From positions 9,860-73,859 of the forward strand of contig JAUCBJ010005881.1 in the NCBI GenBank assembly GCA_032718475.1: a stretch of DNA of 64,000 nt, in the 5' to 3' direction. The DNA comes from Nemertoderma westbladi. Its lineage: Eukaryota; Animalia; Xenacoelomorpha. Of this stretch, positions 3,641 to 25,700 are shown piece after piece. The position numbers and the translations under genes are program-made. How positions within the stretch are numbered: position 1 is the first letter of the stretch; every line of letters starts with the position of its first letter. The notes beneath the pieces are model-generated. The model saw only the letters and a program-made list of their open reading frames with translations. It was not told where the DNA came from and did no database searches.

Positions 3641-4930
3641 GTTAACTAAACGTTTACATAACGGCTGTGAGATAGTTAACTAAACGTTTACATAACGGCA
3701 GTGAGATAGTTAACTAAACGTTTACATAACGGCAGTGAGATAGTTAACTAAACGTTTACATAACGGCAGTGCGATAGTTAACTAAACGGTTACATAACGG
3801 CTGTGAGATAGTTAACTAATCGGTTACATAACGGCTGTGAGATAGTTAACTAAACGTTTACATAACGGCTGTGAGATAGTTAACTAAACGTTTACATTAC
3901 GGGAGTGAGATAGTTAACTAAACGGTTACATAACGGCTGTGAGATAGTTAACTAATCGTTTACATAACGGCTGTGAGATAGTTAACTAAACGTTTACATA
4001 ACGGCAGTGAGATAGTTAACTAAACGGTTACATAACGGCTGTGAGATAGTTAACTAAACGTTTACATAACGGCTGTGAGATAGTTAACTAAACGATTAAA
4101 TAACGGCTGTGAGATAGTTAACTAAACGGTTACATAACGGCTGTGAGATAGTTAACTAAACGTTTACATAACGGCTGTGAGATAGTTAAGTAAACGGTTA
4201 CATAACGGCTGTGAGATAGTCAACTAAACGTTTACATAACGGCTGTGAGATAGTTAACTAAACGGTTACATAACGGCTGTGAGATAGTCAACTAAACGTT
4301 TACATAACGGCTGTGAGATAGTCAACTAAACGTTTACATAACGGCTGTGAGATAGTTAACTAAACGGTTACATAACGGCTGTGAGATAGTTAACTAAACG
4401 TTTACATAACGGCTGTGAGATAGTTAACTAAACGTTTACATAACGGCTGTGAGATAGATAACTAAACGTTTACATAACGGCTGTGAGATAGTTAAATAAA
4501 CGTTTACATAACAGCTGTGAGATAGTTAACTAAACGTTTACATAACGGCTGTGAGATAGTAACTAACCGTTTACATAACGGCTGTGAGATAGTTAACTAA
4601 ACGTTTACATAACGGCTGTGGGATAGTTAACTAAACGTTTACATAACGGCTGTGGGATAGTTAAATAAACGTTTACATAACGGCTGTGAGATAGTTAACT
4701 AAACGTTTACATAACGGCTGTGGGATAGTTAACTAAACGTTTACATAACGGCTGTGGGATAGTTAACTAAACGTTTACATAACGGCTGTGGGATAGTTAA
4801 CTAAAGGTTTACATAACGGCTGTGAGATAGATAACTAAACGTTTACAAAACGGCTGTGGGATAGTTAACTAAACGTTTACATAACGGCTGTGGGATAGTT
4901 AACTAAACGTTTACATAACGGCTGTGAGAT
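3641..4930. repeat. Satellite, 34-bp unit (GTTAACTAAACGTTTACATAACGGCTGTGAGATA), left arm
   Basis: About 38 tandem copies ending at the GAGAT TSD of element 1. Confidence 0.97.
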
Positions 4931-5059
4931 TATAGAATTATATTCTCTAAATGCCGTGGATTTTCAAAATTTTTATTTTATTCGAATTAACTTTGCTAAA
5001 GATTACATTAAGTCCTCATTTGTATTTGCTATATCTATTTGTACGATGATTAGTCAAGT

Positions 5060-5144
5060 GGTTCAGTAGCTCAGTCGGTAGAGCGTTGGAAATTATATGT
5101 AGTGTGTATTGATTTCGAATCCTAGTAAGTGCGAATTATTTTTT
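5060..5144 (+). promoter_or_regulatory. tRNA-derived Pol III type-2 promoter-like segment in the 5' LTR (B box degenerate in this copy)
   Basis: A box/D-arm TAGCTCAGTCGGTAGAGC at 5067; GATTTCGAATCC at 5111; T6 run at 5139-5144. Confidence 0.7.
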
Positions 5145-5211
5145 GTGCAGAATTTCAACTCATTTAAATTGGCCGCTACAAATTAATTGCATTTACTCGA
5201 AGTAAGGTTAA

Positions 5212-5465
5212 CCAATGAGACTGTAGTTATTAGATTGTAACCAATGTCGTACGAGTTATATATTTGCTGGACCAATAGCTATCTTTAAAAACCTGTTAGA
5301 ACTCATAGAACAATCGAGAATTTTCTCGATTGATTGTGGCACAAATTTGGTATAAAAGGTGCGATTTCGTTCATTAGTTATCTCTCTCTATCTTTCTTTC
5401 TCAGTTACATTATTTCAGATTACATTGTTTATTGTATAATAGTTATCGTTTGATTTTGTAATAAA
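5212..5465 (+). promoter_or_regulatory. Candidate Pol II promoter and poly(A) signal of LTR 1
   Basis: CCAAT at 5212, 5241 and 5272 (about 30-bp spacing), TATAAAA at 5351, AATAAA at 5460. Confidence 0.55.
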
Positions 5466-7638
5466 AGTTAGAAATACTTGTCACATCTGCCCTTTTCTAT
5501 CTGTTTTATCATGCTTCACCACGGTGAACCCAACTGAGGGACAGGATGGCTGGCTAGACATCGGGCCGCAGCAATGAACGGGAACATCAAAGGAATGTAG
5601 ACAGGAATCAGGAATGATATCATCTTAGTTATTCGCCCATCGCCTGAAAGGTTAGACAGCGTTCGATGCCTTGCTACCTAAGTATAAGACCAAAGATCGA
5701 AGGTAGAGGTAGTGACACGCTGTACGCCTAAAATTACATCTAGGGACTGTACTGTCTTAATTCAGGAAAAAACCGCAGTAGACCTTCATATTCCTACGGG
5801 GGGGGAGAGGAGAGAGCTCAGGCAGAGATACTAGTACGCAGATAGGACGTAGGCACACCGGTACAAGGCATACACATTGGTAGGGTGCAGCAAACTGTAC
5901 GCCTAACTCTTGCTAAGTACAGGTGCGTCTGCGACTATTTGTAGTACAATGGTGTCCATTGCATCAGAACTTGTCGGCCAGGAGAGTTGCTGCGTTTCAC
6001 CTGAATTAGGATTGTACTGTTCAGGCGGTAGGGCAGTTTACGACTAGGCGCAAATAAATTGAGGCTAATTAGGGATACTAACATCTACCGTGTCCCCGCC
6101 GACATCCTGATAGGAAGTTACCAAGCCCACCTAGGTAACCAAAATTCTAGATAAGAACGCCAGGCTAGCTATTAGTAACCGTACGCCTACTGTAGTAAAC
6201 TAACACATTTCTTCTTAGTATTAGGGACCTGGTAAATTAAAATTGCCGAATTCTGGGCGTAGTATTAATCTCATGCCAGAATTTGAGTCCTGGAAATACG
6301 CAAGAGGGGAAGGAGCCTTATCATTCGTGAGTATTGGCCCTACAAGTTACAAAATTAGAATATTCGTAAAATGCACACCGTACCCAGTAATTATATATGT
6401 GAAGGAGCAAAACTGATCTTGACTGTTCAGAATTAACACACGCGCGTTAAAAATTATTTACACCTCAAAATATATAAAATTAACTTTTGTCCGTACTGCG
6501 CTTTGCCCGCTAGTTAGACATCTCCAAATCTCTGCACCTAGCTAGCGTCTCTTTCGCCCAACCATATAAATCACACCGCGGCAAAGTATACGAGCCCTTT
6601 AGTCCGTCAGCGAGTCAGCCTGATTTTAGGATTCGCTGCGCGGGATTTTGTTTTATCGAAGTTTGTCTGTTCGTAGACTGTTTTCTGCCTTACCGGTTAT
6701 AAGGGACCAATACTGCAATATATTCGCTTACTTGGAGTTTACTGTTTTGGTGAGAAGGTCGGATTTATGATTTGATTCACAAACTTTACAGTAAGATATT
6801 GCAGGTATTGTTACTGTCTCTTCGAATTAGTAGGAATGTGTTTTACTGAACTACAGTTCGGTAGGACTAAAGTTATTTGAAAATTTTGTATTTTGAGGTA
6901 AAAGTTTATATTTGATTAGCTAAGTGCTAATTTTTTGAAATAAAATTTTGATTTGAACCGCGTGTAAAATTTTTGGAATTGAATACCGGTGTTTAAAAGG
7001 ATTTAAATACCATATTGTACCGGTACAAAATTTTCGTAAAAGTAAAACCTAACTCTTTTGTTTTTCAGGATTCAGAACTCATTTCTAGACTGTAACGAGA
7101 GCAAGACCGTGTTTAGCAAGTTTGGGAGATAGATAACCCAACAACTTTGGTTGGGAAAATCGCACTTCGTCCGCAACGCTGGAAACGGAAAGGTTCACGT
7201 CCGGTTTGTATCTGGGAATCTGTTTTTCTGGAGAATTATTGGAGTGGGTGATTTCGAAAAGTTGCATAAATAAGTTAGGCATTACAGTATTAGTTAAAAT
7301 TTATTGTGGGTTCCACTGTCTCAAGTATTTATGCATTCCGTACGATTTCTTTGTTCATTGCTGAATTAGTCCGTATTATTGTATTTAATTTACCTTTTGA
7401 TAACGCATATCGTTATCCGATTTATTTGTTATAAAATTGGCCGCTAGGCTAATTTTATTATATACTTATTCCGTGACATTTATTTGCTGTAAAATTGGCC
7501 GTTTAGGCTAATTTTATCCATCTGCTATAAAATCGGCCGGTAGGCTAATTTTATATGACTGTAATTAGTACTGTTTAAATATAAATACGGTAAATTTGAT
7601 ACTTTGACACTCACTTTACTTGACTTACAACTACTGAA

Positions 7639-10600
7639 ATGAGTGACAAACAAGACTATACGAAGAATACACCTACCGACTATGACTCATGTGATGCGGA
7701 TAAGTCAGCAGCGGAAGAACTACAAGGGAAGACTCGCGAGCCTACCGAACCTACACCGTGTGCGTCACCAGTACATCCAACGGGAGTACCGGATGCCGTA
7801 GTACGAGGCGACGGCAGGACCGAGGACTTTCTAACTGTTCCGCAACCTAGATATAGGGAAACGGACATGGTAAGTTCAGTAGGAAGCCAGGAGAGCGTGG
7901 TTAGAAGCGTCGGCGGATACATGGCGCATATTACCAGGAGTATTGGAGAAGGCCAACGCATATTAGACGAGTTGACCGCTCCGATGTCTCGGTTTGAGTT
8001 CTACACCCTCCAGGTTAGAGTACAAAGTAGAGTACATAAGTCCGTAGATAACCTTATCAGTCTACAAGATCTAGCTAGACAGAGACAGGATATGGATACT
8101 CAACTTAGAATCCTCGAGAAACTAATGATCGCTAGAGAGAAACTGATTCAGTTTAAGTCGACAATTAGGCAGATACAACAGGAACAAGCGGACCAGTTGT
8201 TAGGTGAGTCAGTTTCGGACGAATTATTGCAACCCGAGGAAGAACAGGAACTGTATAGGCTGGATGGACAATTGAAACACCTGACGGATCACTTACGCAT
8301 GTGCGGCGAGGACGTCGGAGATTGGGAAACCGTGCCGGAGGCTACGAGGGAAACTTCACTCGCACAAATCGAACCGGCACCGGGAACACTAGATCAATCA
8401 CTGGTGAGTATTCGCAGCGAAATTGGCGAGGTGAGTATGGCTACGTCAGAAATTGCTCGACAACAGCAGATCTACAGACAACAACAGGAGTGGGAGGAAC
8501 AAACTCAATTGCTAATGGCACAAGCAGCAGCAGAAGAAGAGAAACTACGCGTTGCGAATGTTGCGAGAATCTCTCATCTGCAAGAACAAGCTGAGTTGGA
8601 AGCAGCCGAAATGGAAAGGTTAGAGTTGGACATTGCACAACAAGCGGCAGCGGCCGAGTTAGCGCAACGAACGGCAGCGGCCGAGTTAGAGCGACAAGCG
8701 GCAGCGGCAGCGGCAGTGGCAGCGTCCGAGTTAGAGCGACAAGGGTTAGCTTCAGAAGTGAGAACCGAAATGAAAAAACGGCAAGTAAAGGCTCAGTCAG
8801 CTATACGACAAGCGGAGTTCGAGGCGCAACAACAACAAACGGAACAACGCGAGAAAGAAGTTAAACTTCGTTTCGAACTTGAGAAGAAGGCGAGAGAATT
8901 AGCCAACGCCAAGGAAGATTTGGATCTACAAGCCCGCGACCGATCGATGAGATCTCGAGACGGACATGATTTAGACCAGATGGAGGTAAGGCACCGCCAA
9001 ATCCAGGAACGAATGAAGGAAGGTTCGATAGGAGCACCTGGACGGGAACGACAATTGGTTAAAGACTTATGTCAAAGATTCCCTCAAGTAACTCCTATGT
9101 TTGCACCAGTTACGACTAAGGAACCTGTTTTGATTGCTGGTAGTAGTAATATTTCTCCTATCCATGGTGCGACAGAACACAGGTTTGTTATTCCGGACAA
9201 GTTTACACCGCCAAGAGCAACGTCATCGCCTATTCCGAAAGTCAAGGTAAGTAACCCACCGATTACAGATCGTAGTAGTTTGTTGACCGCACCTGCACTA
9301 CTGACGACTAAACAGGTGAGTCCACCTTCGACACCAAAACCCGCCAGAACATACACGTACCCAATGACTTTTAGGCCTACAAGGCCTTTAGATTCAAACG
9401 CTGTCATTCGACCACCGAACCAGTTTACATCGCAATCTACGACTTCGAGGAAGACTTGTGAGCCTACCGAACAACGGAGACCAGTGGATACGCTACCGTT
9501 CAACCAGTTTACATCGCAATCTACGACTTCGAGGAAGACTTGTGAGCCTACCGAACAACGGAGAACAGTGGACGATGTTCCGAAACGGAATGTTAGAATT
9601 CGAACGACACAACGGACGCGAGCACGTCAGCCACCGTATCCAGGTGACAGTAGTACTTCGAGTGAATCGGATTACCCGAAACGCGAGGTATTTAGAACAG
9701 GAGCGGCTGACGAATATAAACGTGAGCGTTCAGATAACTCCTTTATCGATAATCCTCCACAAAATACACCAACACAAAAGGCGTTACAACCAACGGACGC
9801 AATTAGTACGCAACAACTCGCCGAAATAATGCGCCCAGTTGTAGACAAGTTGGCTCAGATAGAGAAACGTTTAGAAGAAACTCAAACTGATAGTTCGCGA
9901 GGTAACGAGTTCGAACACTCTAGACACCCGAAGCAGCAAAGAAAACAACCCTCGAGAAACACTTCGTATCAAGGAAAAGCGCCAAGACGAGAGAACATCA
10001 ACTCGATTGTCAACCAAGGACGCGAAACTTTGAACGTGGCCGAGGAGATAGCGAAATTCGCCGCCAGACAAGGTTTACCGGTACAACAACCACCGAAGTT
10101 TTCAGGTAACTCGAAACATTGGCACACCTTTGTGGACTACATCGAAACACAAATAGCAGCGTGCGCCTTTACATCGAGGGAGAAATTCAACTACCTGCTA
10201 CAAACGCTGACGGGAGAACCGAAACGTCTAGCGGAGACCTTTGTCGGTGTACCAGATGCCTTCGAACTAGCGTATGATCGCTTAACTTCAATTTACGGTG
10301 GCACGGTGAGTATGGCTAAGTCAGTGATAGATGAACTCTGTAAAGGGGGGGCTATAACAAAACCCGTTGACTTACTAAAATTAGCTGACGAGATTAAGAA
10401 CGCCATTACTACACTACGCTCGATTGGACAACTTGACTACGCGAACACTCCGACAGTTCTATTGAAAATAATAGGAAGATTACACCATCGACTTCGTCGG
10501 GAGTGGCGAAAGATAGAATATCAGCGAGAAGAGAGAGGCGGATTCTTGAAGTTGGAAGACGTCTACTTACTGATATCCAGAGAGGCAGTCGTTGAGACGC

Positions 10601-13600
10601 GTTCGAACTACACGGACCAACATATCGTGGCGGAGGGAATAACATTACCATCCTCGAACCGACAAAAACCCCAAACAACATCCACCAAGACGGTTACTTA
10701 CGCCACATCGACCGACACCCGACAATTTTCGGACAATAATAAGGTATCCGCACCAATTGGAACCAAACAGATCCGACAGCAACTGACCACAGATTTTAGC
10801 GGTTGCCAATATTGTGAACGGCTAGGTAAACGACATACTAGCCATAAACTGAGAGGTTGTCGACTATTCTGCGAATTGAACTCGGAGGAACGACGATTAC
10901 AAATACGACCATTGGACTCTTGTTGGCGGTGTACGCTACATGGACATGTCTGTAAGGACTGCCCAAATACAGACACCTGTCCTTCTTGTGGACGCAACCA
11001 CGACGGCTTGCTACATACAGACAGTCATACGCCGACCAAACGCTTCACCAGGGAACACCCGGAAGCTGCAGCAAGATGCAACACAGCATATAAGGGTCGA
11101 GAGTCGAAAACAACACCGACATTCGTGACGCACATTAGAGATTGTTTCTCGGAACAATCAGGATCGTCAGATGAAGAGTCGGAAGACGAAGACGTTTACT
11201 TTGATACTGGAGACGAACAACCATCGATTGCGCTTCTGACGCCTGATCAACTAAAGGGGTTTAGTATAATACCTGTCAAGATTACTGGCATCAAAGGGAG
11301 CAAGAGGATCTACGCTATCCTGGATTCAGCCTCATCTCATAGCTACGTGGATGAGAAAGTAGCTGATGTTGTGACGGATCTCCGACAAGGTAAGAACGTC
11401 AGTTACACCGTAAGTAGTATGCATGGACAACGTGCAATACCAGTGACACGAGTTAAGTTGAACTTAGACACTCTTCTTCCGAAATCGCAACATAGCGAAA
11501 AGGAGAGGTCTTTGTTACCCTTTAAGGATTTAACCTTTGCGGCCACAAAGGACTTTAGTAACCTACTAGGTCCTGTCCCAGAACAATCCTTGGAGGACCA
11601 TAAGTACTTCAGACACCTTGGTGTACCTGAATGTCCTGTCAACTATAGGTCGGTAGCAATGCTGATCGGGACAGATCAATTCAACCTACATCAAGTGTGG
11701 GAAACCAGACCATCGGCAGTCGTAGCGGGAAACGCATACGCCTGTAGAACGCCGATAGGGTGGTATACTCGAGCGCCTGTGCGCACACTGGATATAAGTG
11801 ACGAGGAAGACGATATACAAAGTACATGTAGTTTATTAACTACAACTTCGACTCATTCCTTTTCACACGACGTAGACTATACTACACTACATTCGACAAA
11901 ACATGACACGACGTGTGTAGCGAGTATGATAAGTCACAAGGAGCAGCTAATCCACCAGGTGAGTTTAGAACTTGGGAAGAAGACGAGTCAGCCAGAGATT
12001 CCATCGACGACAGATGATAACGCCGGAAGACTTGCGAGCCTTTCTACACCAGACATATCGCCAGACACGTTACCAGACGTATCACCAGACGCGTTACTAG
12101 ACGGTCAACCAGACATTTTGCCAGACATATCACAAAATGTTCTACCAGACACTAGTAACATATTGACAAATAGTAAAGCCGCAGTTTCTCTATTGGAGCG
12201 GCCTTCTACAGACAATCAACCAGACACGTTACCAGACGTATCGCCAGACGCGTTACTAGACGGTCAACCAGACGTTTTGCCAGACACGTCACTAGATATT
12301 TCGCCGGATGTTCCGCGAAACATTTTACCAGACATGTCACAAAATGTTCTACCAGACACTAGTAACATATTGACAAATAGTAAAGCCGCAGTTTCTCTAT
12401 TGGAGCGGCCTTCTATTGACAAACAACCAGACGCGTTACTAGACGGTCAACCAGACGTTTTGCCAGACATGTCACTAGATATTTCGCCGGATGTTCCGCG
12501 AAACATTTTACCAGACATGTCACAAAATGTTCTACCAGACACTAGTAACATATTGACAAATAGTAAAGCCGCAGTTTCTCTATTGGAGCGGCCTTGTATT
12601 GACAAACTACCAAATTTGACACACTTGAGCAACAATAAGCACAGTGAAACCTCATGTATTACAGATGTGGGTAGTACCTACGTAAATGTAAATACAGGTG
12701 TTACTTTGCGCTCAAGAGACATACCAAACTTGCAACCTATGGTGAAACCTGGGATTAATATCGGCAGAAAAATAAGTTTACCGAAACCCACTGACCCCAT
12801 AGAGTTCAAACCACCATTAACGATCGACTTACAAAGTACTGACAACCAAGGTAAGAAAACAAGGAAGGACAAATTACTTGTAGACCCGGACGGATCAACA
12901 GTCAACAAGGGAATACTTACCGGCGGACCCGTGGGCCCTTCTAGTAAATCAAAACCTTCCAAATTCTCCATTGACTTACCTGATGACGTCACAAATACTT
13001 ACGTCGACCGCATTGTAAACCTAACAGATTCTTGGACAAACGCTTGCCGAAAATTAGCGTGGATTGTACGTTTTGTACAATACGTTAAAGGCAAACGCGA
13101 CTTTACACGTCGACTTACATTGACTGAGATTGACAGGTGTGAAATTAAATTAATTCGCCATTACCAACTGCGATATTTCGCACGCGAATTCACATCTATA
13201 AATCAAGGTCAACCAATCAAGTCGTCACCAATATTGAGTTGGAGTCCGATAATTTATAATGGCTTAATTTGTCATAAATCTCGGCTTCAAAACATTGACT
13301 TTAACACAAACTTTAGATACCCAATAATAATATCGCAGCATCACGAACTACAACGTTCAATGATACTGGACGCACATTTACATCTGAAACACGCTGGAAG
13401 ACACCACTGTCTTTCCTACTTACATACAAGATTTGTATTAATTAGACCCAGTAAAGCGTTAAGTTCAGTGACACGTACGTGTATTATTTGTAAAAAGGTA
13501 CATTCTAGAATAGGTACCCAAGAAATGAGTGAACTTCCACAAGCACGACTTCAAGCATTCAGACCACCTTTTACAGAGACTGGAATTGACTGCTTTGGTC

Positions 13601-14511
13601 CCATACATACGAAACGTGGACGTATACTAGTAAAACGCTGGGGACTGATTTTCACATGTATGTCCAGTAGGGCAGTTCATATTGAACGTGTGATGGATCT
13701 TTCCACCAACGCGTTTATACTAGCATTGCGGCGATTTATCGCTAGACGCGGACTAGTGAAATGCTTGTACTCAGACCAAGGGACAAACTTTGTTGGTGCT
13801 CGAAATGAGATTGCTAGAGCCTTTAAGAAATTAGATCATGATCAAATCTCAAACGAACTACGTCCTTACAAGATTGTTTGGAAGTTTAATCCTCCAGATA
13901 GTCCATGGAGAGGCGGAGTCTGGGAGAGATTGATTAGATCTATAAAGACAGCCATGGCAAAGGTCATTCCAGTAAACCACATTTTGACAGACGACCAACT
14001 GACAACACTGTTTGTTGAAATCGAGGCAATACTAAATACTAGACCAATAGTATTAGTACCCGATGACAAACAATCCCAGTTTGCTTTAACACCGGCACAC
14101 CTGCTTATGCAGGCACCGACTACTTTAACGCCTATTTCTTTTCCAACAGAAGGCGATAGCTACGGTAGAAAAGCGTGGAAAATCAGGCAACTACTAGCTA
14201 ACAAATTCTGGGAAATATGGCAAAACCATTATTTGCCCTCTATTTCTGCCAGAACAACATGGTACAATAACACCCGCGCATTAAAGCCGGGAGATCACGT
14301 GCTGTTAGCGGAAGTGAATCTAAAAAGACGCTTCTGGATAACAGGTGTAATTTTAGCCACACATCCATCTATGGATGGAGTGACAAGAACTGTGACAGTA
14401 CGGACAATTGACGGTCGTACAGTTGACAGACCGACTCAACGTCTCGTACTTCTTGAAGAGACTCGTAACGAGTCTGGAGACTACAAATCTCCAACTAATG
14501 TTAGTAAATAA
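7639..14511 (+). CDS. BEL/Pao polyprotein Gag-protease-integrase lacking RT and RNase H (2290 aa)
   Basis: Gag PPKFSG...W..F; knuckles CQYC..H..C, CWRCTLHGHVCKDC, CPSCGRNHDGLLH; protease AILDSASSHSYV; IN HLHLKH...CIIC, TGIDCFGP, YSDQGTNF, GGVWERLIRSIK; no YxDD or DAS motif. Confidence 0.93.
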   Translation: MSDKQDYTKNTPTDYDSCDADKSAAEELQGKTREPTEPTPCASPVHPTGVPDAVVRGDGRTEDFLTVPQPRYRETDMVSSVGSQESVVRSVGGYMAHITRSIGEGQRILDELTAPMSRFEFYTLQVRVQSRVHKSVDNLISLQDLARQRQDMDTQLRILEKLMIAREKLIQFKSTIRQIQQEQADQLLGESVSDELLQPEEEQELYRLDGQLKHLTDHLRMCGEDVGDWETVPEATRETSLAQIEPAPGTLDQSLVSIRSEIGEVSMATSEIARQQQIYRQQQEWEEQTQLLMAQAAAEEEKLRVANVARISHLQEQAELEAAEMERLELDIAQQAAAAELAQRTAAAELERQAAAAAAVAASELERQGLASEVRTEMKKRQVKAQSAIRQAEFEAQQQQTEQREKEVKLRFELEKKARELANAKEDLDLQARDRSMRSRDGHDLDQMEVRHRQIQERMKEGSIGAPGRERQLVKDLCQRFPQVTPMFAPVTTKEPVLIAGSSNISPIHGATEHRFVIPDKFTPPRATSSPIPKVKVSNPPITDRSSLLTAPALLTTKQVSPPSTPKPARTYTYPMTFRPTRPLDSNAVIRPPNQFTSQSTTSRKTCEPTEQRRPVDTLPFNQFTSQSTTSRKTCEPTEQRRTVDDVPKRNVRIRTTQRTRARQPPYPGDSSTSSESDYPKREVFRTGAADEYKRERSDNSFIDNPPQNTPTQKALQPTDAISTQQLAEIMRPVVDKLAQIEKRLEETQTDSSRGNEFEHSRHPKQQRKQPSRNTSYQGKAPRRENINSIVNQGRETLNVAEEIAKFAARQGLPVQQPPKFSGNSKHWHTFVDYIETQIAACAFTSREKFNYLLQTLTGEPKRLAETFVGVPDAFELAYDRLTSIYGGTVSMAKSVIDELCKGGAITKPVDLLKLADEIKNAITTLRSIGQLDYANTPTVLLKIIGRLHHRLRREWRKIEYQREERGGFLKLEDVYLLISREAVVETRSNYTDQHIVAEGITLPSSNRQKPQTTSTKTVTYATSTDTRQFSDNNKVSAPIGTKQIRQQLTTDFSGCQYCERLGKRHTSHKLRGCRLFCELNSEERRLQIRPLDSCWRCTLHGHVCKDCPNTDTCPSCGRNHDGLLHTDSHTPTKRFTREHPEAAARCNTAYKGRESKTTPTFVTHIRDCFSEQSGSSDEESEDEDVYFDTGDEQPSIALLTPDQLKGFSIIPVKITGIKGSKRIYAILDSASSHSYVDEKVADVVTDLRQGKNVSYTVSSMHGQRAIPVTRVKLNLDTLLPKSQHSEKERSLLPFKDLTFAATKDFSNLLGPVPEQSLEDHKYFRHLGVPECPVNYRSVAMLIGTDQFNLHQVWETRPSAVVAGNAYACRTPIGWYTRAPVRTLDISDEEDDIQSTCSLLTTTSTHSFSHDVDYTTLHSTKHDTTCVASMISHKEQLIHQVSLELGKKTSQPEIPSTTDDNAGRLASLSTPDISPDTLPDVSPDALLDGQPDILPDISQNVLPDTSNILTNSKAAVSLLERPSTDNQPDTLPDVSPDALLDGQPDVLPDTSLDISPDVPRNILPDMSQNVLPDTSNILTNSKAAVSLLERPSIDKQPDALLDGQPDVLPDMSLDISPDVPRNILPDMSQNVLPDTSNILTNSKAAVSLLERPCIDKLPNLTHLSNNKHSETSCITDVGSTYVNVNTGVTLRSRDIPNLQPMVKPGINIGRKISLPKPTDPIEFKPPLTIDLQSTDNQGKKTRKDKLLVDPDGSTVNKGILTGGPVGPSSKSKPSKFSIDLPDDVTNTYVDRIVNLTDSWTNACRKLAWIVRFVQYVKGKRDFTRRLTLTEIDRCEIKLIRHYQLRYFAREFTSINQGQPIKSSPILSWSPIIYNGLICHKSRLQNIDFNTNFRYPIIISQHHELQRSMILDAHLHLKHAGRHHCLSYLHTRFVLIRPSKALSSVTRTCIICKKVHSRIGTQEMSELPQARLQAFRPPFTETGIDCFGPIHTKRGRILVKRWGLIFTCMSSRAVHIERVMDLSTNAFILALRRFIARRGLVKCLYSDQGTNFVGARNEIARAFKKLDHDQISNELRPYKIVWKFNPPDSPWRGGVWERLIRSIKTAMAKVIPVNHILTDDQLTTLFVEIEAILNTRPIVLVPDDKQSQFALTPAHLLMQAPTTLTPISFPTEGDSYGRKAWKIRQLLANKFWEIWQNHYLPSISARTTWYNNTRALKPGDHVLLAEVNLKRRFWITGVILATHPSMDGVTRTVTVRTIDGRTVDRPTQRLVLLEETRNESGDYKSPTNVSK

Positions 14512-15043
14512 TTAGGAGTTTACAAATAGATTTCCACGTACCTGTACACTGTAGTAAAGACAGCGGTAGAATTCCATTGTCTTTATATGTGAACATTGAG
14601 GGTAATACCCTTATGTATCACATAGGAGCGGGATTTGTAGGTATAAGAAATGGAATTATACTTGGAACTCACAATATTGAGACATTTTCGAAACTTTAGA
14701 CAATCCATTTGGATTTGAAAAAATTTTAAAATTTTCTCCAGTGAATAGATTTCAGGGTACAGTCGGGTGGAACTTAAAATTAGAGAAACAAGAGAGGAAG
14801 ACTTGCGAGCCTTTCTTAAAATTTTAATTAAATTTTACACGGTCTTGTTTCAATAAGTTACGTCAAAATAGACTTCCCTATATTTATTACTAATTCTTGA
14901 TTGCTTATTTTCTGATAATAGTTTGGGATCAAAAAGTGAGTATTTTAGACTCACAGCCAGTTTAGCCCAAATTCGTTTTTTATTTCGGCAAAAATTTTAG
15001 ATAAGAAGCAGCGTGTCATTAAAGAAACCCTAGATCTTAGGCT

Positions 15044-16666
15044 ATGGGTAGGAGGTTAGAGCGTTGTCGAGCCAAAAAAGGCAGACGAAAACTCTCACGT
15101 CTCCTCACAACTAACTACAAACTCTGTTGTAATCCCTCTAGTAGTAATGATTATGTAACTACACCTCTAATTATGGAGAGGATGCGTGTATTGGGCTATT
15201 ACGTCACCTCCAAGAGCGGTCTTACAATATTATTTAGCAATAGAGTCGTCAGTGAATGTTTGCTTAATAACAAACGTATCGTGGAGATTACGGATGAATC
15301 ACGGCAGACGCGCGCACCTATCGGTCACCTTGGTGATGATTTCGAAGTAACGACTACGATCACTGACGATCCTTTAGAGGAACTTCTTGAGATAGAAAGG
15401 AACCTCCCGAAGAAATCTCAGACGGAGATTCGACAACTTGAAGCAACAGATGCTATAGTTTGTATACAACCTTCAGAAACCTACCAACCCATAGATCCAG
15501 ATGATTATGATTATAGTGTGGGAGGAAGCGCTCGACCAATTGGAGATCTTATATAAGAACGAGTGTGGTACCCTGCCAATACGATGTGTGGTAAATGTGG
15601 CGTCGCTGGACATCATTCGACCAAGTGCAGTGGAAAGCACATTACTACGACTCAACTAATCTGTGGATGGTGTGGAGATCAAGGGTCTCATACCTTTTAT
15701 ACTTGCTGGAGATTTATGGCTCAATGTACTTATTGCAATATAAAAGGGCATCGAGCATCTGAATGCCAACTAAGAGACATACCCTATGAACACGAATCTG
15801 TAAAACTCGTGAGAAAACTATTCGATGAGTGGGAAGATTTAGCCGACGAACACGTATCGGCACAAAGAAGACGATTTCCGATGAGGGCGCATCTTGGATT
15901 TTGGGCGGTAAATCCCCAAACGATGATGTCGGAAGGATACATCTCCGCTATGCCCCAATATGACGAACTTATCGAGGTAGTCGATATTTTGCCTCACGAC
16001 AGTCGATTCCGAGTAGTGCGTGAGTATCTATTACAGATTCACCCAGACAACAAGAACACGTGGAATTTTCAGAAAGTCGTAAATCGTATCACGTATGGTG
16101 AATTTGATCGTTTTCGAACTGAAAAGCGGAATAAAGGAGCTTGGTTAACCGTCGCATGGGCGTACCGAGCCGCGTTTTACCACAAACGTATACGAGCGAG
16201 CGTATTCGAGGAAGAGGAGATCCTAGAGGCGACAAATATACCAGCCACTCCGGTTGCGCCGTCTGCACGTCACACTCGGGAGGACGGGCAGGGTAGGATC
16301 ATAAGGGTCCAGAAAGTTAGCCAACAATTAAAGAAGTCTATTAATATAGAAGAACGCAAGGGAGTTGAGCCGACCATTCGAATTACTCGGGATACGGTAT
16401 CGCTTCCTAGAGAACCAACAGGAGGATCGGGACATACACCAGCTGATCAAAAGGGGGCGCAAGCTACTCTTGGGTCTGTGTCGTCCGCTTCCCGCGCATT
16501 CCCAGACGTTTTACCAACTGTAGTGACAACTGATCGGTCACGAGGAATCGGTCGAGGTTTTGGGATGCCAAATAGACGAATTTGCGAGGAAATAGTCGCA
16601 CCGTCTCCCAACGTCCAAACGAAACCAGTGACTCGCCCCACGAGTCCCATATCGCGAGCAAAGTGA
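15044..16666 (+). pseudogene. Accessory ORF of element 1, triple zinc-knuckle protein with one in-frame TAA (15554-15556)
   Basis: ORFs 15044-15556 and 15563-16666 share a frame; CGKCGVAGHHSTKC, CGWCGDQGSHTFYTC, CTYCNIKGHRASEC; start codon uncertain. Confidence 0.75.
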
Positions 16667-17502
16667 CCTGTGCGCAGTTTTCGAGGACGCGGCAGGGCTC
16701 GATCCACTAAGCGATAAAAGGGAGGGCAAGGGTGGACGGAAGACTCGTGAGCCTTTCTTGTGAATTTGTGATTTATTTGAATTATATGTTTTATATTTAA
16801 TTAGTAAGTTTTGTATTCTGGAAGAACTCATATTTAGTAAGATTTATATTTAGTAAGAATTTATATTTTGCAAGATTTATATTTTATATTTGTGATTATT
16901 CCGAACTTATGCAATTTATATTGTTCCGAATACTATGCAATTTATATCTTATAAGCAGTATTTGTATTTACAGTGAAATAGAAAGTAAGAGTAGATGGAA
17001 GACTCGTGGGCCTTTCTTATAGTTTCATTTGTAAAGTGTTATATTTGTATTTAGAAAGTTTTATAGTTAGAAAGTTTTGTACTTAGAAAGACTCATATTT
17101 GTAATTATTCCGAACTTATGCAATCTACATTTAGGCACGAAAGTATTTGTAATTATTTGAATTTATGCAATATTTGAGATGCAATAGTAGATGGAAGACT
17201 CGCGAGCCTTTCTTATGATTTCATTTATTTGTATTTGTAATTGTTTGAATTTATGCAATATTGAGATGCAATAGATTTATATTGGTGAATTTAATTTAGA
17301 TTTATATTGTACTTACTTAGTAAAGCCTTAAATATGTAAAGTTTGAATTTGTAATTATTTTGTATCGAATTATTATGTAGAAAGGAAGTATTGCTTGAAA
17401 TTTAATTTGTAAATATGTAAGTACGCGACGCCCTAAGTATTCTATAATTTGATTGATTATTGGTGAAAACCGTATATTTTATGCACGATAATATCCTGTT
17501 TT

Positions 17503-17512
17503 CATGGAGCGG
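17503..17512 (+). other. Polypurine-tract-like site of element 1 (CATGGAGCGG)
   Basis: Immediately precedes the 3' LTR; resembles CTGGGTGCGG at the same position in element 2. Confidence 0.65.
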
Positions 17513-19410
17513 TATAGAATTATATTCTCTAGATGCCGTGGATTTTCAAAATTTTTATTTTATTCGAATTAACTTTGCTAAAGATTACATTAAGTCCTCA
17601 TTTGTATTTGCTATATCTATTTGTACAATGATTAGTCAAGTGGTTCAGTAGCTCAGTCGGTAGAGCGTTGGAAATTATATGTAGTGTGTATTGAGTTCGA
17701 ATCCTAGTAAGTGCGAATTATTTTTTGTGCAGAATTTCAACTCATTTAAATTGGCCGCTACAAATTAATTGCATTTACTCGAAGTAAGGTTAAGCAATGA
17801 GACTGTAGTTATTAGATTGTAACCAATGTCGTACGAGTTATATATTTGCTGGACCAATAGCTATCTTTAAAAACCTGTTAGAACTCATAGAACAATCGAG
17901 AATTTTCTCGATTGATTGCGGCACAAATTTGGTATAAAAGGTGCGATTTCGTTCATTAGTTATCTCTCTCTATCTTTCTTTCTCAGTTACATTATTTCAG
18001 ATTACATTGTTTATTGTATAATAGTTATTGTTTGATTTTGTAATAAAAGTTAGAAATACTTGTCACATCTGCCCTTTTCTATCTGTTTTATCATGCTTCA
18101 CCACGGTGAACCCAACTGAGGGACAGGATGGCTGGCTAGACATCGGGCCGCAGCAATGAACGGGAACATCAAAGGAATGTAGACACGAGACAACCCGCAA
18201 TATCATCTTAGTTATTCGCCCATCGCCTGAAAGGTTAGACAGCGTTCGATGCCTTGCTACCTAAGTATAAGACCAAAGATCGAAGGTAGAGGTAGTGACA
18301 CGCTGTACGCCTAAAATTACATCTAGGGACTGTACTTTCTTAATTCAGGAAAAAACCGCAGTAGACCTTCATATTCCTACGGGGGGGAGAGGAGAGAGCT
18401 CAGGCAGAGATACTAGTACGCAGATAGGACGTAGGCACACCGGTACAAGGCATACACATTGGTAGGGTGCAGCAAACTGTACGCCTAACTCTTGCTAAGT
18501 ACAGGTGCGTCTGTGACTATTTGTAGTACAACGGTGTCCATTGCATCAGAACTTGTAGGCCAGGAGAGTTGCTGTGTTTCACCTGAATTAGGATTGTACC
18601 GTTCAGGCGGTAGGGCAGTTTACGACTAGGCGCAAATAAATTGAGGCTAATTAGGGATACTAACATCTACCGTGTTCCCGCCGACATCCTGATAGGAAGT
18701 TACCAAGCCCACCTAGGTAACCAAAATTCTAGATAGGACGCCAGGCTAGCTATTAGTAACCGTACGCCTACTGTAGTAAACTAACACATTTCTTCTTAGT
18801 ATTAGGGACCTGGTAAATTAAAATTGCCGAATTCTGGGCGTAGTATTAATCTCATGCCTGAATTTGAGTCCTGGAAATACGCAAGAGGGGAAGGAGCCTT
18901 ATCATTCGTGAGTATTGGCCCTACAAGTTACAAAATTAGAATATTCGTAAAATGCACACCGTACCCAGTAATTATATATGTGAAGGAGCAAAACTGATCT
19001 TGACTGTTCAGAATTAACACACGCGCGTTAAAAATTATTTACATCTCAAAATATATAAAATTAACTTTTGTCCGTACTGCACTTTGCCCGCTAGTTAGAC
19101 ATCTCCAAATCTCTGCACCTAGCTAGCGTCTCTTTCGCCCAACCATATAAATCACACCGCAGCAAAGTACACGAGCCCTTTAGTCCGTCAGTGAGTCAGC
19201 CTGATTTTAGGATTCGCTGCGCGGGATTTTGTTTTATCGAAGTTTGTCTGTTCGTAGACTGTTTTCTGCCTCACCGGTTATAAGGGACCAATACTGCAAT
19301 ATATTCGCTTACTTGGAGTTTAATGTTTTGGTGAGAAGGTCGGATTTATGATTTGATTCACAAACTTTACAGTAAGATATTGCAGGTATTGTTACTGTCT
19401 CTTCGAATTA
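17513..19410 (+). repeat. 3' LTR of element 1 (1898 bp)
   Basis: Direct repeat of 4931-6829, followed by TSD GAGAT. Confidence 0.95.
17642..17726 (+). promoter_or_regulatory. tRNA-derived Pol III promoter-like segment in the 3' LTR (intact A and B boxes)
   Basis: TAGCTCAGTCGG at 17649, GAGTTCGAATCC at 17693 with tRNA-like spacing, T6 at 17721-17726. Confidence 0.75.
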
Positions 19411-19428
19411 GAGATAGATAACTAAACG
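19411..19428. repeat. 18-bp remnant of the 34-bp satellite between the two retrotransposons
   Basis: GAGATAGATAACTAAACG matches monomer variants seen near 4451 and 4824 and contains both inner TSD copies. Confidence 0.9.
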
Positions 19429-20608
19429 TGTAAAGGCTTTTGCGGAATTAGCCGGTTATTTTCCCGGTAAAGTACTCTGTAGTTGGTTTAACAGGCATAA
19501 AAGGCCGTGTCCTTACTGTACTGGTGTTTTAGAGGACATAAAAGTCATTTCTTCTGTATGTGTACTTTAGCGGACATAATTCGCAATTTTATGACGCAAT
19601 GCGCCAAATCCTCTGTAAACAGTGTAGCTACCATGACGACGGCTAACAGCTGATGCTGTACACGTGGAGCCTTTTCTTTGTTCTCTGTTCCTTCTTTGTT
19701 CGGTCGACCAATCAGAGTGTTTTTGCCTCTGTGTTAGAGATTGTATATAGAAACTCGTGGAGTTGAGTCAGTATGTGATTTTGTCCACAGCCTACAACAC
19801 AGGCTTTGGAACCTCCGTGTTTCAGTCTTTAGCCCAACATTAGTAGGCTTAATTATAGAACGTATATCTGTTATCAATCCAAACTCAATAATCATAACTT
19901 ACTCACTCACTCATAACTTAACAAACCATTCATAACTTAACATTTTACTGCTTTTACTGTCGGTTATTCATTATATTTGTTGATGGAATATTATATTTGG
20001 AATACTGATAAATAATCAGACACCCCAATCTTCTTGATATACTAAAGGTTAGAGAGACCGGTTACATATAACGATTGCGACTTACATTAAGTGGTTTGAA
20101 GTGAATCTAATGCTATTTTATAGGCCCTACATGTATTGTCTGTTGTTCTCCTTATATGTGACTAAAATTAATGAAGGTCGGCAGATCAGTGTGCAGCATT
20201 GTGCAGTATTGTGTATGATTGTGATTGATAACAAAGCATCTCCTAAAGAATGCGCCATATACGTGAATCTATAGCCATTCCGTTGTGTCTAGTTTAAGTC
20301 ATAACTCTGTTTATATATTTAAAGCGCCACGTCCTAAAGGAACTGTTAATATTTCCCGAAAGTGAATAATATTTGTCAGAGATTATATATATTACGATCA
20401 GTCGAATAATACAGTAGGCCTACCCCGCAATACGGTTAGGCTTCCGAATCCAGTCTCCCGGGTATATCCAGCGGGTGAATGATCGCGCATAGACTGGCTT
20501 CGGCTAATGTAGTGTATCAAATACTTGTCATAGGCTAAAGATGATCTATCATCTAAAAGACATCCCAATTTGGCAGGTTAAACTGCTAAAGGTCTGAAAA
20601 CGCGAACA
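19429..20608 (+). repeat. 5' LTR of element 2 (1180 bp)
   Basis: Matches 36861-38040 with about 11 substitutions counted by eye. Confidence 0.96.
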
Positions 20609-20890
20609 ATAACAGATATACCTTCTGTATTGCAGTAGGCAATAACGCTGAAGTACCGGACAACCGGTACCTAGTAGGCCTGACTACCTAACCACCCGGA
20701 CCGGTACCTACAGCAGTACAGGTACATCAGTATTATTCGATTGTGAAATTGTATACCGGTAGGCTGTTTAAGAGATTAGGGACTGTACACCCCTTGTTTC
20801 TTTTGGAGCTTACTTATTTCTGTCAGTTTTATTTATTTGTAGGCCAGTATTGAGCAGAAGGCGTGTAAGCCTGCTCAGATTGTACAGACA

Positions 20891-21455
20891 ATTTGTAGGC
20901 TAGACTGTTGTCTGACTGTTGTTAAGTCTGAAGGGACTGTAGTGTGTGTAGAGCATATGTCCGAAAAAGTACTAGTTAGGAAAGTAGGGGCTGCCAGTGC
21001 TGTGAGGTGAACCCCCCAAGAAAGAATAAGTCGTACTACTCGGTTAGAACGCATACTAACTAACCATTTCGGAGTCTGCATATATTGTAGTTTATTTAGG
21101 CTTGATAGTAGTCTGCCAGCGTTTGGTCTGTACCTTGTTTGTGTAGTTTGTATGGGTAGCGTAATAGTTCTTATTTAGATAATTTGTAGGCTGGATTTTG
21201 TCTGACTGTTGTTAGGTCTTGAGAGATTTCGGTGTGTGTAGAGTGTATGTCCGATAAAGTGCCAGTTGGGAACGTAGGGGCTTCCAGAGCTGTGAGGTAA
21301 ACCCCCTCGAAAGTATAAGTCGTACTACTGGGTTAGAACGCATACTAACTAACCATTTTGGAGTCTGCATATACCGTAGTTTGTTTGGGCTTGACAGTAG
21401 TCTGTCAGTATTTGGTCTGCATTTTGTTTGAGTAGTCTGTACGCGTAGCGTAATA
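20891..21455 (+). repeat. Tandem duplication (~291-bp period) in the 5' leader of element 2
   Basis: ATTTGTAGGCT...GTCTGACTGTTGTTA...GGTTAGAACGCATACTAACTAACCATTT occurs twice, starting at 20891 and 21182. Confidence 0.85.
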
Positions 21456-22791
21456 TTTATTATTCAGAGTTTATGCGATTATTCGCAACATTCATATCCC
21501 CAAGTTTATTCCTACAGTAATTGTGCTTGTTATATATACCGTTATAGTTAAACTAACCCCGGTACTACATCAGGGCTGCTTGGCGTAGGTAAAGACTGGT
21601 GATTTTGTGCCCCGGTCACTCCAGCAGATACCGTGGTTCTTTTAGCTGTTCAAGTATTTTTAACTACTGATTATTTGTTGTATAAGTACTTGTACCTAAT
21701 TTAGGGTTTAGTGTACAGTGCTTTCCGAAGGTGATTAGTGTGTAGGCAGTATATTTGTGTTGTAAAGTGGTTAATAGGCACGTTGGTTCTGGTAGACCGC
21801 GGTAATTAACTTCTAGGTAGGAACACTCCGTGATACATAACGTAGTACTTATAGCGCCACGGCTATAAGTCGTCAGACGGTGGTATTTTTCTATCTGGAC
21901 AACGCAGTATATTTACTACTACTTATTATTTTCAAATACCGTAGTACCCTGTCCTTTGTAATAACCAGATATTCTAACCCTTTGTTAGGCTGGTTAGTAA
22001 ACTTCTTGTAAAACTACCCTAAAAATTTGTACTTGTAAATTTTTGTGTTTATTTAGAGATTGTAATCTCACCTCGAATTGTACGTAATTTGTAGTATTAA
22101 GTAACTTAGGTAAATTAGAATTATTTGTTTTAGTGTCCAACAAGTAGCACTTCACTGAGAGCGCACAGCTTCTGTGTAGTGACTCCCCCCAGAAATAATA
22201 ACATTTATTTCAAATATTGACAAAACCCATTTAACGGGTAAATATATTATAAATCAACTCAAACCGATTTATAAAATAGTAGGCCTGCCATACAACAATT
22301 AGGTCTCAAGATCAGTTAGACTACTGCTCAAATAACGGTAATCAAGTAAAGCAAAGTAACCAAGTAACCCTAAAAATTCAGAAATTCAATTATTCTAAAA
22401 TAATTGATATACTATTTACAATAGGCTTATTATATTTATTTCTATAAATTTAGGCTGAAATTATACCGGTATTCTGTAATTAATTCTAGTCCATAATTAT
22501 ACTTATATATACTATAAGTGTAAGCTGTATACCGGTATTCACGATAGGCCTATTATATATTTATATATACTTGTGCTGAAATTACATACCGGTATTCTGT
22601 GACTAATCTAGTCTGTGACAATACTTATATATATATACTATAAGCATACCGGTATTCTAATATATTATATATATATTACGCTACACTGAGTAGCAGTATC
22701 GGTAATTAATTACTAGGCTAACAGTGATACTGAATTACTAGACTTGCTTAAACTGTAATATAGCAGTAGGCATTCAACTGTACAAACCAAC

Positions 22792-25700
22792 ATGTCCGAC
22801 ACAAAGCAAAACCTGTCAGATAGTCTCCTAGATACAACCATATGTGACCCAGACAGGAGTGTGGAACGTGTAGGACCGAAGTTCAACTCACCTCCTACTG
22901 TAAGAAAGATCATCCCTCCCGTAGTAATATCAGACCCTAGGCTAGTCCAACATCGTAGGTCTATCATAGGCACTTGGGCTCAGGTCAAGCGGGACCGAGA
23001 AGCAGCAGAACAGCAACAACCCGTGAGCCAATAACTTATTTCTCAGCGGCCCGACAGCTCCAGTAGTGCGGATACTGTAGAGCTGACACCCGAACACGGC
23101 GCAAAGATGACAGATGTGGTTTATTCGGACCCCCTTCTCATCCTTCCTGCAGCCGTACTCACTAGGTTATTGATTGCGGTGGAAGAACACCAGATCGATT
23201 GGGCGAGAAATAAGCGATAAACTAAAGATAGTTATGCGGGATACACAAGGGAAGAACTGAAGTCTATTGTCGAGTCGCAATGGAACTTCCCCGGACCCGG
23301 ACTCCCGTTTGATTTATCAGAAGCTGCCTGGGAAGACATACACAGGATGGGAGTAACCAAGGAAACCATCGATCCAGCTGTGTGGAAGAGGTCCGCAGCC
23401 GGATACGTACAGGGATTCTTCAGCTCCATGGAGCGATTAGAAGAACAACTGTTTCAACAACCCCAAGGACCTCAAGAGCAGGGACAGCTGCTTTATCAAG
23501 TTAGAGAAAGAATTCTACGAATCAGGCTAATCTTATCGGCCTTTGAAGAGGCTTCTAAAAGAAGACAAGACACGTCGTTGCAAGTTGCCGTAAAGACTTG
23601 GTTTCAACGGGTGAGTCTCCAGGTGCAAGGAACGGCTCAGTGGAAAGCCCAGCTGGATGAGCGCTCAACCCATGGAGAATCAACAGATGCTACTTTTTCC
23701 CAAGTGGAAAGTGAAGCGACGGCAGAGAAACCGCATAAGAGGAATGCCATTGACATCTATCTGTCAGACTATCAACGTTTTTTAGGTGATGAAGAGTTGA
23801 GGAGAAGGCTAGATGGACTTAGCCCTAATAGTGAAGGAACCCAGCGTGTGTTGGACGCCATCGATGTGGATATGAGAGCTGCGAACCAAGCTAGATTTGA
23901 TGAATGCCTCCGCATCACTAGAGTCCAAGAAGAACAAGTGAAGAAAAAACGTATAGAAGACAGAAAGACAGCGGCAGTGGCAGCAGCAGTGGCAGCGGCA
24001 GAAGCAGAAAGAAAAGCGGCAGTGGCAGCGGCAGAGGCAGAGGCAGAAGCGGAAAGAAAAGCGGCAGAGGCAGAGGCAGAAGTGGAAAGAAAAGTGGCAG
24101 CGGCAGCGGCCGAAGCGGAAAGAAAGGCGGCTATGACAGCGGCAGAGGCAGTAGCAGAAGCAGAACGGAGAGCTTCCGAAGAAACCACCCAATTAGAATT
24201 GGAAAACATTCAGGAGAATCAAGACTGCATAAATAAACAGTTAACAGCTAGTAATATGCAGATGATGAGTCGATCTACTCCCAAAAGACAGGGATATACA
24301 TCATCTGAGGAAGGCGATACCACCGATACTGAAGGCGGAGGAAATAGATCTCGTCTAAGCAGATGTAAAAGAACATCCCACCGTCAGAAATTGCCTGATT
24401 TGCCCCCAGCTGTTAGAAGGCAACTAAATAACACAAACTTAGGTAGTACAGAACCCACAGACCAAATAATTAAAATAGAAAGACTCCCTACTATAATAGA
24501 TGAGCCTGAAATAATTAGGCCTGTTCCCAAAGCCACCCTTTCGGTGATAGAGACACCTGTACTCCCTGAACCTACCTCTAAATTCCCTCTGCACAGCACT
24601 AAGCTATCTGTGCCCCACAGAACCACCCTTGAAAATGTTCATGTCCTGGACTCCGAGCGAAATATTCATGATTTGTCGCCCGTTGTCCCTCATCCGCCCG
24701 CTACAACGTTGGCGCCTCCCGCTTCGGCGGTCGAGTGGGTAGATGAGGGACGACGGGAGATGGGTCTCCTGCTCGGACAGCTGAGGGAACAACATTCTCG
24801 CTCCTCTCAGCAGGCCCAGGAGATGGAGGGAACTGTGCAGCAGTTAAAGGGAACGATTAGAGAGAGTAGGTTAGAGTTGCAAGAAGTGCAGCAAAGTATC
24901 GCGTTAGAACGCGATAAATTAGTAAATACACAAAAGGGTATACCACCAACCCCGGTAACAATGTGTCAACCTGTTAGGTCTGAAGTATTTCATGCGCAAG
25001 GTGTGGAGCCTACACACATATATACTGCTAGCGAAGTAGAAACTCCTATAGTGAACCCTATTAAGGGTAATTATAGACCTGTTGATAATGATATTCCCTA
25101 TAGACCTGATCATAATCCGAGAAATTTATATACCGATAACTCGATATTAAATAACACGATGGCCCAAGAAAGTTTTACGCGTCAAATGGCTAGAACCGAA
25201 GTCCGTCAAGCGGTAAAGGTGGGAGAGATAGTCAAGTTCAATGGAGAGGTCAATGGAGAGGAGATGAAATGGTTACCTTTTAATGAATATTATAAAGATA
25301 ACATACAGAACTCTGTACTATCTAATGGGGAGAAACTTAGATTCCTCATCGAGTGATTGGAAGGATCTCCCAAGTTAATGGCGTTAAAGTTTATTGGACA
25401 TCCAGACGGATTAAGACAAGTTTGGGATACACTAAACATCAGGTATGGTAATAGGAATAACATAGCTAAATATTTGTATGCAAAATTAGTAGCGCCCCGA
25501 AAGTTCATTAGCAGCGGGATAATAGAGTTTTCCGATGAGATTCAAGAGATCTGTAGACAATTAGATTGGTTAGGTAAGTCTCATGAATATCAGAGTTCTA
25601 TGGTTATTGGAGCCGTGGCTTCTACTTTACCGAAGGGTGGAGTAGGTACACGCTGGGATAAGAAAGTGTTATATATGATGGAACAACAACGACGAGACCC

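Follow-up and report, generated by a model that had tools for sequence, protein, structure and literature searches.

The window, by which we mean the whole 64,000-nt stretch of DNA that was analysed, contains two BEL/Pao LTR elements arranged head to tail: element 1 at 4931–19410 (14,480 nt) and element 2 at 19429–38040 (18,612 nt). Their repeats, coding regions and shared domains are laid out as follows.

3641–4930, no strand: 34-bp tandem array, the target of both insertions, which continues at 19411–19428 and 38041–38452
4931–6829, plus strand: 5′ LTR of element 1, 1899 nt, ends TA..TA, target duplication GAGAT
17513–19410, plus strand: 3′ LTR of element 1, 1898 nt, 27 mismatches to the 5′ LTR
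7639–14511, plus strand: gag-protease-linker-integrase ORF of element 1, uninterrupted, 2295 codons
15173–16666, plus strand: ORF3 of element 1, beginning at the first in-frame ATG past the candidate splice acceptor
15569–16081, plus strand: shared module in element 1, made up of three CCHC-type knuckles followed by a helical domain (BLASTP, shuffles, profile)
19429–20608, plus strand: 5′ LTR of element 2, 1180 nt, ends TG..CA, target duplication AAACG
36861–38040, plus strand: 3′ LTR of element 2, 11 mismatches to the 5′ LTR
23221–30998, plus strand: gag-pol of element 2 (Gag, protease, RT, RNase H, integrase), broken in this copy by stops and a frame change
32549–34741, plus strand: 730-codon ORF upstream of the exonuclease, no family assigned
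34819–35343, plus strand: RNase D/EXD2-like DEDDy exonuclease domain of element 2 (alignment, profiles), start disrupted
35836–36351, plus strand: shared module in element 2 (BLASTP, shuffles, profile, structure model)

The insertions of the two elements in the 34-bp array are independent and lie 17 bp, or half a unit, apart; the LTR pairs are 98.6% (element 1) and 99.1% (element 2) alike. Both elements resemble BEL/Pao (Belpaoviridae) in their Gag DUF1759, triple Cys-His box, DSG/DSA protease, DUF5641, D(61-62)D(49)E integrase and 5-bp target duplications. In translations and Pfam searches, the Gag of each combines DUF1759 with a triple Cys-His box whose third finger is CCHH, the hallmark of the group described in PMC554778, and element 2 shows the PR-RT-RH-IN order with BEL-type domains (Peptidase_A17 at 3e-35, YMDD, DAS and DUF5641). 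PMC3601003 describes BEL/Pao elements as reported from metazoans only. Compared with usual BEL/Pao elements, for which PMC3118150 gives lengths of 4.2–10 kb and LTRs of 0.2–1.2 kb, both are longer (14.5 and 18.6 kb, with LTRs of 1.2–1.9 kb), lack a tRNA-type primer site and carry a non-envelope ORF3, while element 1 has LTR ends of TA..TA instead of TG..CA and represents a high-copy family in which Gag, protease and integrase are intact but RT is missing. An integrase tree of 12 rows, made up of both elements and 10 of 13 public BEL/Pao loci (L006 was left out because of stops, L014 and L015 because of length), places the two elements as sisters with support of 96/93. With an integrase identity of 47%, these sisters are thus related families rather than a parent and its deletion.

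The place of RT and RNase H in element 1 is occupied by about 400 residues with tandem repeats. The RT-RNase H region of element 2 finds only itself and nothing in element 1, a Pfam scan of the 2295-codon ORF returned neither RT nor RNase H, and neither sequence comparison nor a profile of public hits revealed a trace of an exonuclease; the earlier note, made from the letters alone, was therefore right that element 1 is without all three. Contigs of four runs span element 1 almost fully. Their summed depth reaches tens of thousands in X1 and X3, against at most 27 over the flank, and in both of these runs the depth over the linker that replaces RT is of the same order as that over the integrase. 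This depth shows that element 1 exists in many copies, though it is not a copy number. We infer that its RT is supplied in trans by a relative such as the family of element 2. The linker also contains a tandem duplication (12244–12612), and the U3 of element 1 includes a tRNA-like stretch with A-box and B-box (5058–5135 and 17640–17715), on which neither ARAGORN nor Rfam made a call; a comparable stretch is described for Helenus LTRs in PMC10886601.

Behind the gag-pol of element 2, the 730-codon ORF had no match in Pfam, in NCBIfam or among the public module hits. The end of this ORF was considered as the start of the nuclease (a weak PHROG score of 0.24) and rejected, as the alignment to RNase D sets motif I at 34819. 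From motif I onward, the domain is 30% identical to RNase D over 82 residues (E=4.5e-5). It also scored 0.92 in Atlas, with 28 of 30 hits to PF01612, and matched the profile of public hits at 6e-17; a 12-row profile matched EXD2 over the nuclease at E=2e-4, and the NCBIfam rnd model gave 0.002, far below its curated cut-off. Motif I of this copy reads D-T-K and motif III Y-x3-E, with D-x-E kept in four of the public relatives described below (P0003, P0004, P0006 and P0008), in which motif III has D or E. Given the disrupted start and the D-T-K motif, nuclease activity of this copy of element 2 appears doubtful. Tandem duplications were also seen in the leader (20890–21464) and ahead of ORF3 (31440–31700) of element 2, and basic low-complexity tails lie behind both ORF3s, at 36468–36782 (KKLRKRRPRKK, in another frame) and 16667–16714 (RGRGR, past the stop).

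A module of about 170 residues is common to the ORF3s of the two elements; its three knuckles begin at 15587, 15662 and 15725 (element 1) and at 35854, 35947 and 36010 (element 2). BLASTP of the two ORF3s gave 47 identities in 178 positions (26%; E=1e-18), which confirms the homology proposed in the earlier note, and the likeness extends beyond the Cys and His residues. With those residues masked, the module alignment scored 81 against a shuffle maximum of 61; with them fixed and the rest shuffled, it scored 175 against 107; and the stretch behind the last knuckle scored 86 by itself against 56, each with 0 of 2000 shuffles reaching the observed value. The peptides quoted in that note were found where it had placed them, although the module reaches about 200 nt past the end it had given, and the conserved unit is more than the triple knuckle it had described, since it also takes in a helical domain in which E, A, R and G are conserved. 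The upstream likeness it had drawn between CIQPSE and CLESEA is not significant when taken alone (110 of 2000 shuffles, no useful BLAST hit), although the segments are collinear if the stop at 15554–15556 is read as X. ORF3 was rejected as an envelope protein: the highest 19-residue hydropathy was 0.7–1.2 in all four ORF3 pieces, none of which has a transmembrane stretch that could serve as a membrane anchor.

Relatives of the module were sought with HMMER among 1.84 billion protein representatives, using query alignment A2 and a cut-off of E<=0.001. Nine public clusters were found, the best at 1e-7, all of them annotated only as 'hypothetical protein'; the module, called novel in the earlier note, has public relatives. 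It is present in all nine clusters, with two tandem modules in P0001, and six have a DEDDy-like exonuclease upstream (P0001–P0004, P0006 and P0008), with P0002 matching Pfam PF01612 at 6e-5. P0010, a cluster mate of P0005, shows nuclease motifs by eye at a score of only E=0.17, and P0007 and P0009 may be truncated, their contigs being 1316 and 724 bases long. In P0004, a BEL Gag (DUF1759) and protease are fused in frame to the exonuclease and knuckles in a protein without RT; the expectation that the module would always be a separate ORF 3′ of the integrase was thus not borne out. A link to BEL/Pao is shown for P0004 alone, the genomic context being known for one of the nine public hits, and some of the hits could be host genes or belong to other elements.

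Nearly invariant positions, in the numbering of the element 2 ORF, are C346, C377, C380, H386, C391, C398, C401, G405 and H406 and, behind the knuckles, E433, A436 and R445, together with a glycine in a W-G-F-F-like motif. A profile built from the public hits alone matched element 1 (2.6e-22) and element 2 (4.4e-15), with the next of 1217 frame segments at 0.13; these matches indicate consistency and not independence, because the hits had been chosen using both elements. Word-seeded homologue searches produced 56, 806 and 73 candidates, none of which scored, and pattern scans of metagenome and viral contigs found no module. Among 13 other BEL/Pao integrase loci, nine of them with fewer than 600 bases behind the integrase, no module was found, the best matches being at E of 0.11 and 0.13, and a terminal repeat was present only at L003, L008 and L009. 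A tree of 12 modules was saturated and left unused. The two-row structure model had a pLDDT of 44 and its Foldseek search was empty, while the 12-row model reached a pLDDT of 70–88 only over knuckles 2–3 and the first helices; fold searches with the latter gave no Z>=5 and no E<=0.001, which is not evidence of a new fold. DUF8363 (PF27939) was suggested by Atlas at 0.88 in fungal proteins, below the 0.9 mark, and is absent from local Pfam scans.

Judging from these alignments, the usual protein appears to be a DEDDy exonuclease followed by a linker, three CCHC knuckles and the helical domain, the module being its C-terminal part. The earlier note had supposed that element 1 shed its nuclease, and loss from element 1 would indeed be simpler than gain elsewhere, because the two integrases are sisters and six of the nine outside clusters bear the nuclease. 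What the two elements carry would then be a nuclease-knuckle accessory gene of BEL/Pao, apparently unclassified, with a binding-only derivative in an RT-less family. A search of mainly open-access literature found neither a BEL/Pao exonuclease or knuckle ORF3 nor an RT-less Gag-protease-integrase BEL family. Relatives may be present in the BEL/Pao sequence sets of PMC3118150 or among rotifer ORF3 sequences.

To our knowledge, most extra ORFs of LTR retrotransposons are without a shown role and look neutral. The module could likewise have no role, either as neutral cargo or as a stray copy of the Gag Cys-His box, a reading we find hardly credible. It would account for the interruption of both copies in the window, that of element 1 by the stop at 15554–15556, and would agree with the neutral variation described for rotifer ORF3s in PMC5408684. 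However, most contigs of other copies of element 1 are without that stop, the module is conserved in nine distant clusters, and its third finger is CCHC, unlike the CCHH of BEL Gag; the Gag Cys-His boxes score 41–48 against the modules, values reached by 3 to 25 of 500 shuffles, and the boxes score 98 against each other. Variation among copies contradicts neutrality. Across 15520–16130, contigs of the four runs contain 33 differences and no indel. One difference falls in the stop codon, and as most of the depth in all four runs is without the stop, ORF3 is one frame in the element 1 family. Of the other 32, 27 are synonymous, where 9.4 ± 2.5 would be expected from the same types of change (0 of 20,000 placements), and within 15662–16066 the proportion is 24 of 25; the crude dN/dS of the module region is 0.08. 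The module in element 1 is under strong purifying selection, in agreement with the earlier claim that it has been retained for its function.

Expression of this ORF appears to involve splicing from the leader, for which two candidate sites were located.

7247–7253, plus strand: candidate splice donor in the leader, with the intron starting GT at 7248
15111–15141, plus strand: candidate ORF3 splice acceptor, with a branch-point-like CTAAC, a pyrimidine tract and AG

One contig of run X4 joins position 7246 to 15141 with GT..AG ends, and the first in-frame ATG past the joint is at 15173; the joint is absent from X1 and X3. The short side of this contig has 29 letters, X4 is labelled 'DNA?' and leaves the flank uncovered, and the joint may have come from spliced RNA that was copied into DNA. 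ORF3 of element 1 is likely spliced from the leader. In X4, contig depth is greater over ORF3 than over gag-integrase, but contigs cannot rank the expression of genes. The leader contains a second acceptor-like site at 7049–7068 (CTAAC, pyrimidine tract, CAG), to which none of the best 15 of 64 contig joints leads.

The best PDB matches of the 12-row profile, over knuckles 1–2, were the knuckle pair of Lin28 (8.5e-6) and the trypanosome RNase D TbRND (7c45; 8.6e-5). Because the knuckles resemble the fingers of Lin28 and TbRND, the module is likely to bind RNA on behalf of a 3′-trimming enzyme, and it would presumably bind zinc as well. The Lin28 likeness may be generic to tandem CCHC fingers, and unlike Lin28 the proteins described here have no cold-shock domain, while a third knuckle and the helical domain follow the matched pair. 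TbRND (PDB 7C42 and 7C45) shares the order of a DEDDy exonuclease followed by CCHC knuckles, which is found in element 2 and in six of the nine clusters and not in element 1; according to PMC7797062, its C-terminal CCHC fingers carry RNA binding and boost cleavage. It differs in being a host mitochondrial enzyme that has four knuckles and lacks a match to the helical domain, and the nuclease here is closer to EXD2, WRN and plant PF01612 proteins. The TbRND match is confined to the knuckles, with its nuclease outside the matched stretch; the nuclease-knuckle fusion in the elements is probably independent of it. If so, they would provide a second, independent case of a nuclease-plus-CCHC design that has been termed very unusual in the trypanosome enzyme.

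The resemblance of the knuckles to binders of single-stranded RNA also bears on whether ORF3 might bind DNA and direct the integration of both elements to the 34-bp array. The two elements do sit in one array, 17 bp apart and each with its own 5-bp duplication. Against this, array depth is 0–22 compared with tens of thousands for the element in the same runs, so that most copies are unlikely to lie inside the array, and ORF3 is separate from the integrase; targeting is therefore a very improbable role.

Element 1 contains a dispersed sequence that could serve as a binding site.

7727–17209, plus strand: 17-nt motif GGAAGACTYGYGRGCCT in eight copies in element 1, at 7727, 9449, 9533, 12025, 14796, 16738, 16997 and 17193

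Eight copies are present where 0.03 would be expected, and they occupy five independent places. All read along the transcribed strand and fall partly in non-coding DNA and partly in coding DNA, there in two reading frames; five of the eight lie inside the intron. An unbiased scan of 14-mers recovered one family in element 1, in up to eight places, where 20 block shuffles gave 3–4. Dispersed 14-mers in element 2 reached at most four places, GGAAGACTYGYGRGCCT is absent from element 2 and from the rest of the window, and a pattern scan of viral contigs for the motif was empty. The motif is near-palindromic; a shared hairpin was considered and rejected, the folding being weak and not formed in several copies. 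The motif is a candidate for the binding site of the module, but may instead act as DNA or be recognised by Gag.

We consider it quite possible, though short of probable, that the module of element 1 binds the element's own genomic RNA, so that unspliced RNA is kept stable, exported or packaged in the manner of CERV or Rev. The accessory protein would probably be made from spliced RNA. The knuckles of the long form would hand RNA 3′ ends to its nuclease, whereas the short form of element 1 would be left with binding alone. Element 1 would then have kept its module because the version of its helper would not recognise element 1 RNA, with the 17-nt motif as a candidate target and export or protection as the role. 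That the grip is kept without the nuclease, while RT is borrowed, fits a job impossible for the helper, namely recognition of the element's own RNA, and the earlier suggestion that the module is needed in cis or is element-specific is plausible.

CERV of the Cer1 element, as described in PMC10309623, and Rev-like proteins offer a parallel by description, in that CERV is likewise encoded by an ORF in env position, rich in Cys and without a membrane anchor, and is made from spliced RNA, as seems likely for ORF3 of element 1. CERV is required for export of genomic RNA, a role that is proven for it and a hypothesis for the module; it also differs in having a C4 loop and a G-like domain and no nuclease. 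Several points weigh against an own-RNA role. Element 2 has the module but not the 17-nt motif, Rev and CERV lack the nuclease that most relatives of the module possess, and the Gag-protease fusion of P0004 points instead to action inside the particle. ORF3 of element 1 contains short basic clusters and no leucine-rich export pattern, although such patterns are unspecific.

Abundance of element 1 and its repeated motif might also reflect an anti-silencing activity, a reading that we think somewhat unlikely. According to this reading, the knuckles would catch host small RNAs (piRNA, siRNA or uridylated ends), which the long form would degrade and the short form sequester, or the protein would act in a sequence-specific way on the chromatin of the element, like the plant VANC proteins. 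TbRND, with the same domain order, destroys small guide RNAs (PMC7797062), the Lin28-like knuckle pair would suit such a target, a role in silencing has been raised for the DEDDy ORF3s of rotifers (PMC5408684), and element-private repeated motifs are described as a hallmark of VANC targets (PMC5735166). A general suppressor acts in trans, however, and would leave a non-autonomous family with little reason to keep a selected copy of its own, and CpG is not depleted, with observed/expected ratios of 1.15 and 0.96 in the elements.

The module could alternatively act during reverse transcription. No TGG tRNA-type primer site lies behind the 5′ LTR of either element; instead, each LTR can pair with its own leader.

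5787–6840, plus strand: LTR-leader pairing of element 1, 5787–5797 with 6830–6840 (the first 11 bases behind the LTR), with one G:U
19862–19874 with 20609–20621, plus strand: LTR-leader pairing of element 2, perfect over 13 bp

Descriptions of self-primed (Tf1-like) elements in PMC6317226 and PMC7175516 supply criteria for this signature, the former asking for at least 10 bp in the 5′ LTR complementary to a stretch that begins within bases 0–5 behind the LTR. Element 2 has this with 13 bp, and element 1 only if one G:U is counted (11 bp). The 13 bp of element 2 and the 11 bp of element 1 were each reached by 0 of 300 shuffles, and the strict 8 bp of element 1 by 9 of 300. In element 2 the pairing can be followed over 20 of 21 bases, and in element 1 two further helices flank it. 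Upstream of the pairing stretch there are candidate TATA/initiator sites. We found no description of self-priming in BEL/Pao in the literature.

An in-particle helper of RT would use the exonuclease to trim the RNA 3′ end to the self-primer duplex or to proofread, with the knuckles as chaperones of the LTR-leader pairing; element 1 would have lost RT and nuclease together, receiving both from its helper. In keeping with such a role, both elements combine own-LTR pairing with the lack of a tRNA-type site, the nuclease and knuckles lie inside the Gag-protease polyprotein of P0004, RT, RNase H and nuclease are jointly absent from element 1, and element lengths of 14.5 and 18.6 kb far exceed the usual 4.2–10 kb. 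Three BEL/Pao loci without ORF3, in which the repeat lies directly behind the integrase, have no TGG site either, so self-priming seems independent of the gene. Together with the weakness of the strict pairing in element 1 and the lack of RT in the P0004 protein, this makes the helper role unlikely in our estimation.

Third ORFs with a DEDDy nuclease are known from Gypsy-like elements and Terminons of rotifers (PMC5408684, PMC6338049, PMC6431247), and the comparison, made by description only, shows both likenesses and differences. According to PMC5408684, the ORF3s of bdelloid Juno and Vesta (Ty3/gypsy) and of Terminons encode an RNase D-like 3′-5′ exonuclease in env position with an altered acidic motif, their spliced expression is called typical, and the non-autonomous TelKA2n has lost most of pol and kept ORF3. 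The present elements belong to BEL/Pao instead and have three CCHC knuckles and a helical domain behind the nuclease, where that source, as far as its description goes, mentions only a Cys-His-Cys motif in some ORF3s; they also include a nuclease-less form and show strong purifying selection, in contrast to the neutral variation described in rotifers.

The module defines a protein family in which the long form would be catalytic and the short form would only bind. The short form is under selection in an RT-less family, and its retention there singles out what a helper cannot provide to a retroelement; with the 17-nt motif, the module makes a ready candidate protein-RNA pair. Returning to recognition of the element's own RNA, a bolder version seems improbable to us, though worth stating: BEL/Pao may have built a Rev/RRE-like system from a captured zinc-finger RNase D, in which ORF3 reads a dispersed RNA motif private to the family, the nuclease is an exchangeable effector, and this specificity allows the RT-less family to retain its Gag, protease, integrase and regulator and to parasitise only the RT of its helper. 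Were this true, BEL/Pao would gain a regulator like that of complex retroviruses.

Downstream of the two elements, satellites with units of 22 bp and 29 bp occupy 38557–40595, 48592–49334 and 56590–59030, the 22-bp satellite being in inverted orientation around 40.6–48.6 kb. The region comprising 50558–52060 and 59971–62718 contains an RTE-like LINE RT (Pfam, 4.5e-29) and, by eye, a second, broken non-LTR element on the minus strand.
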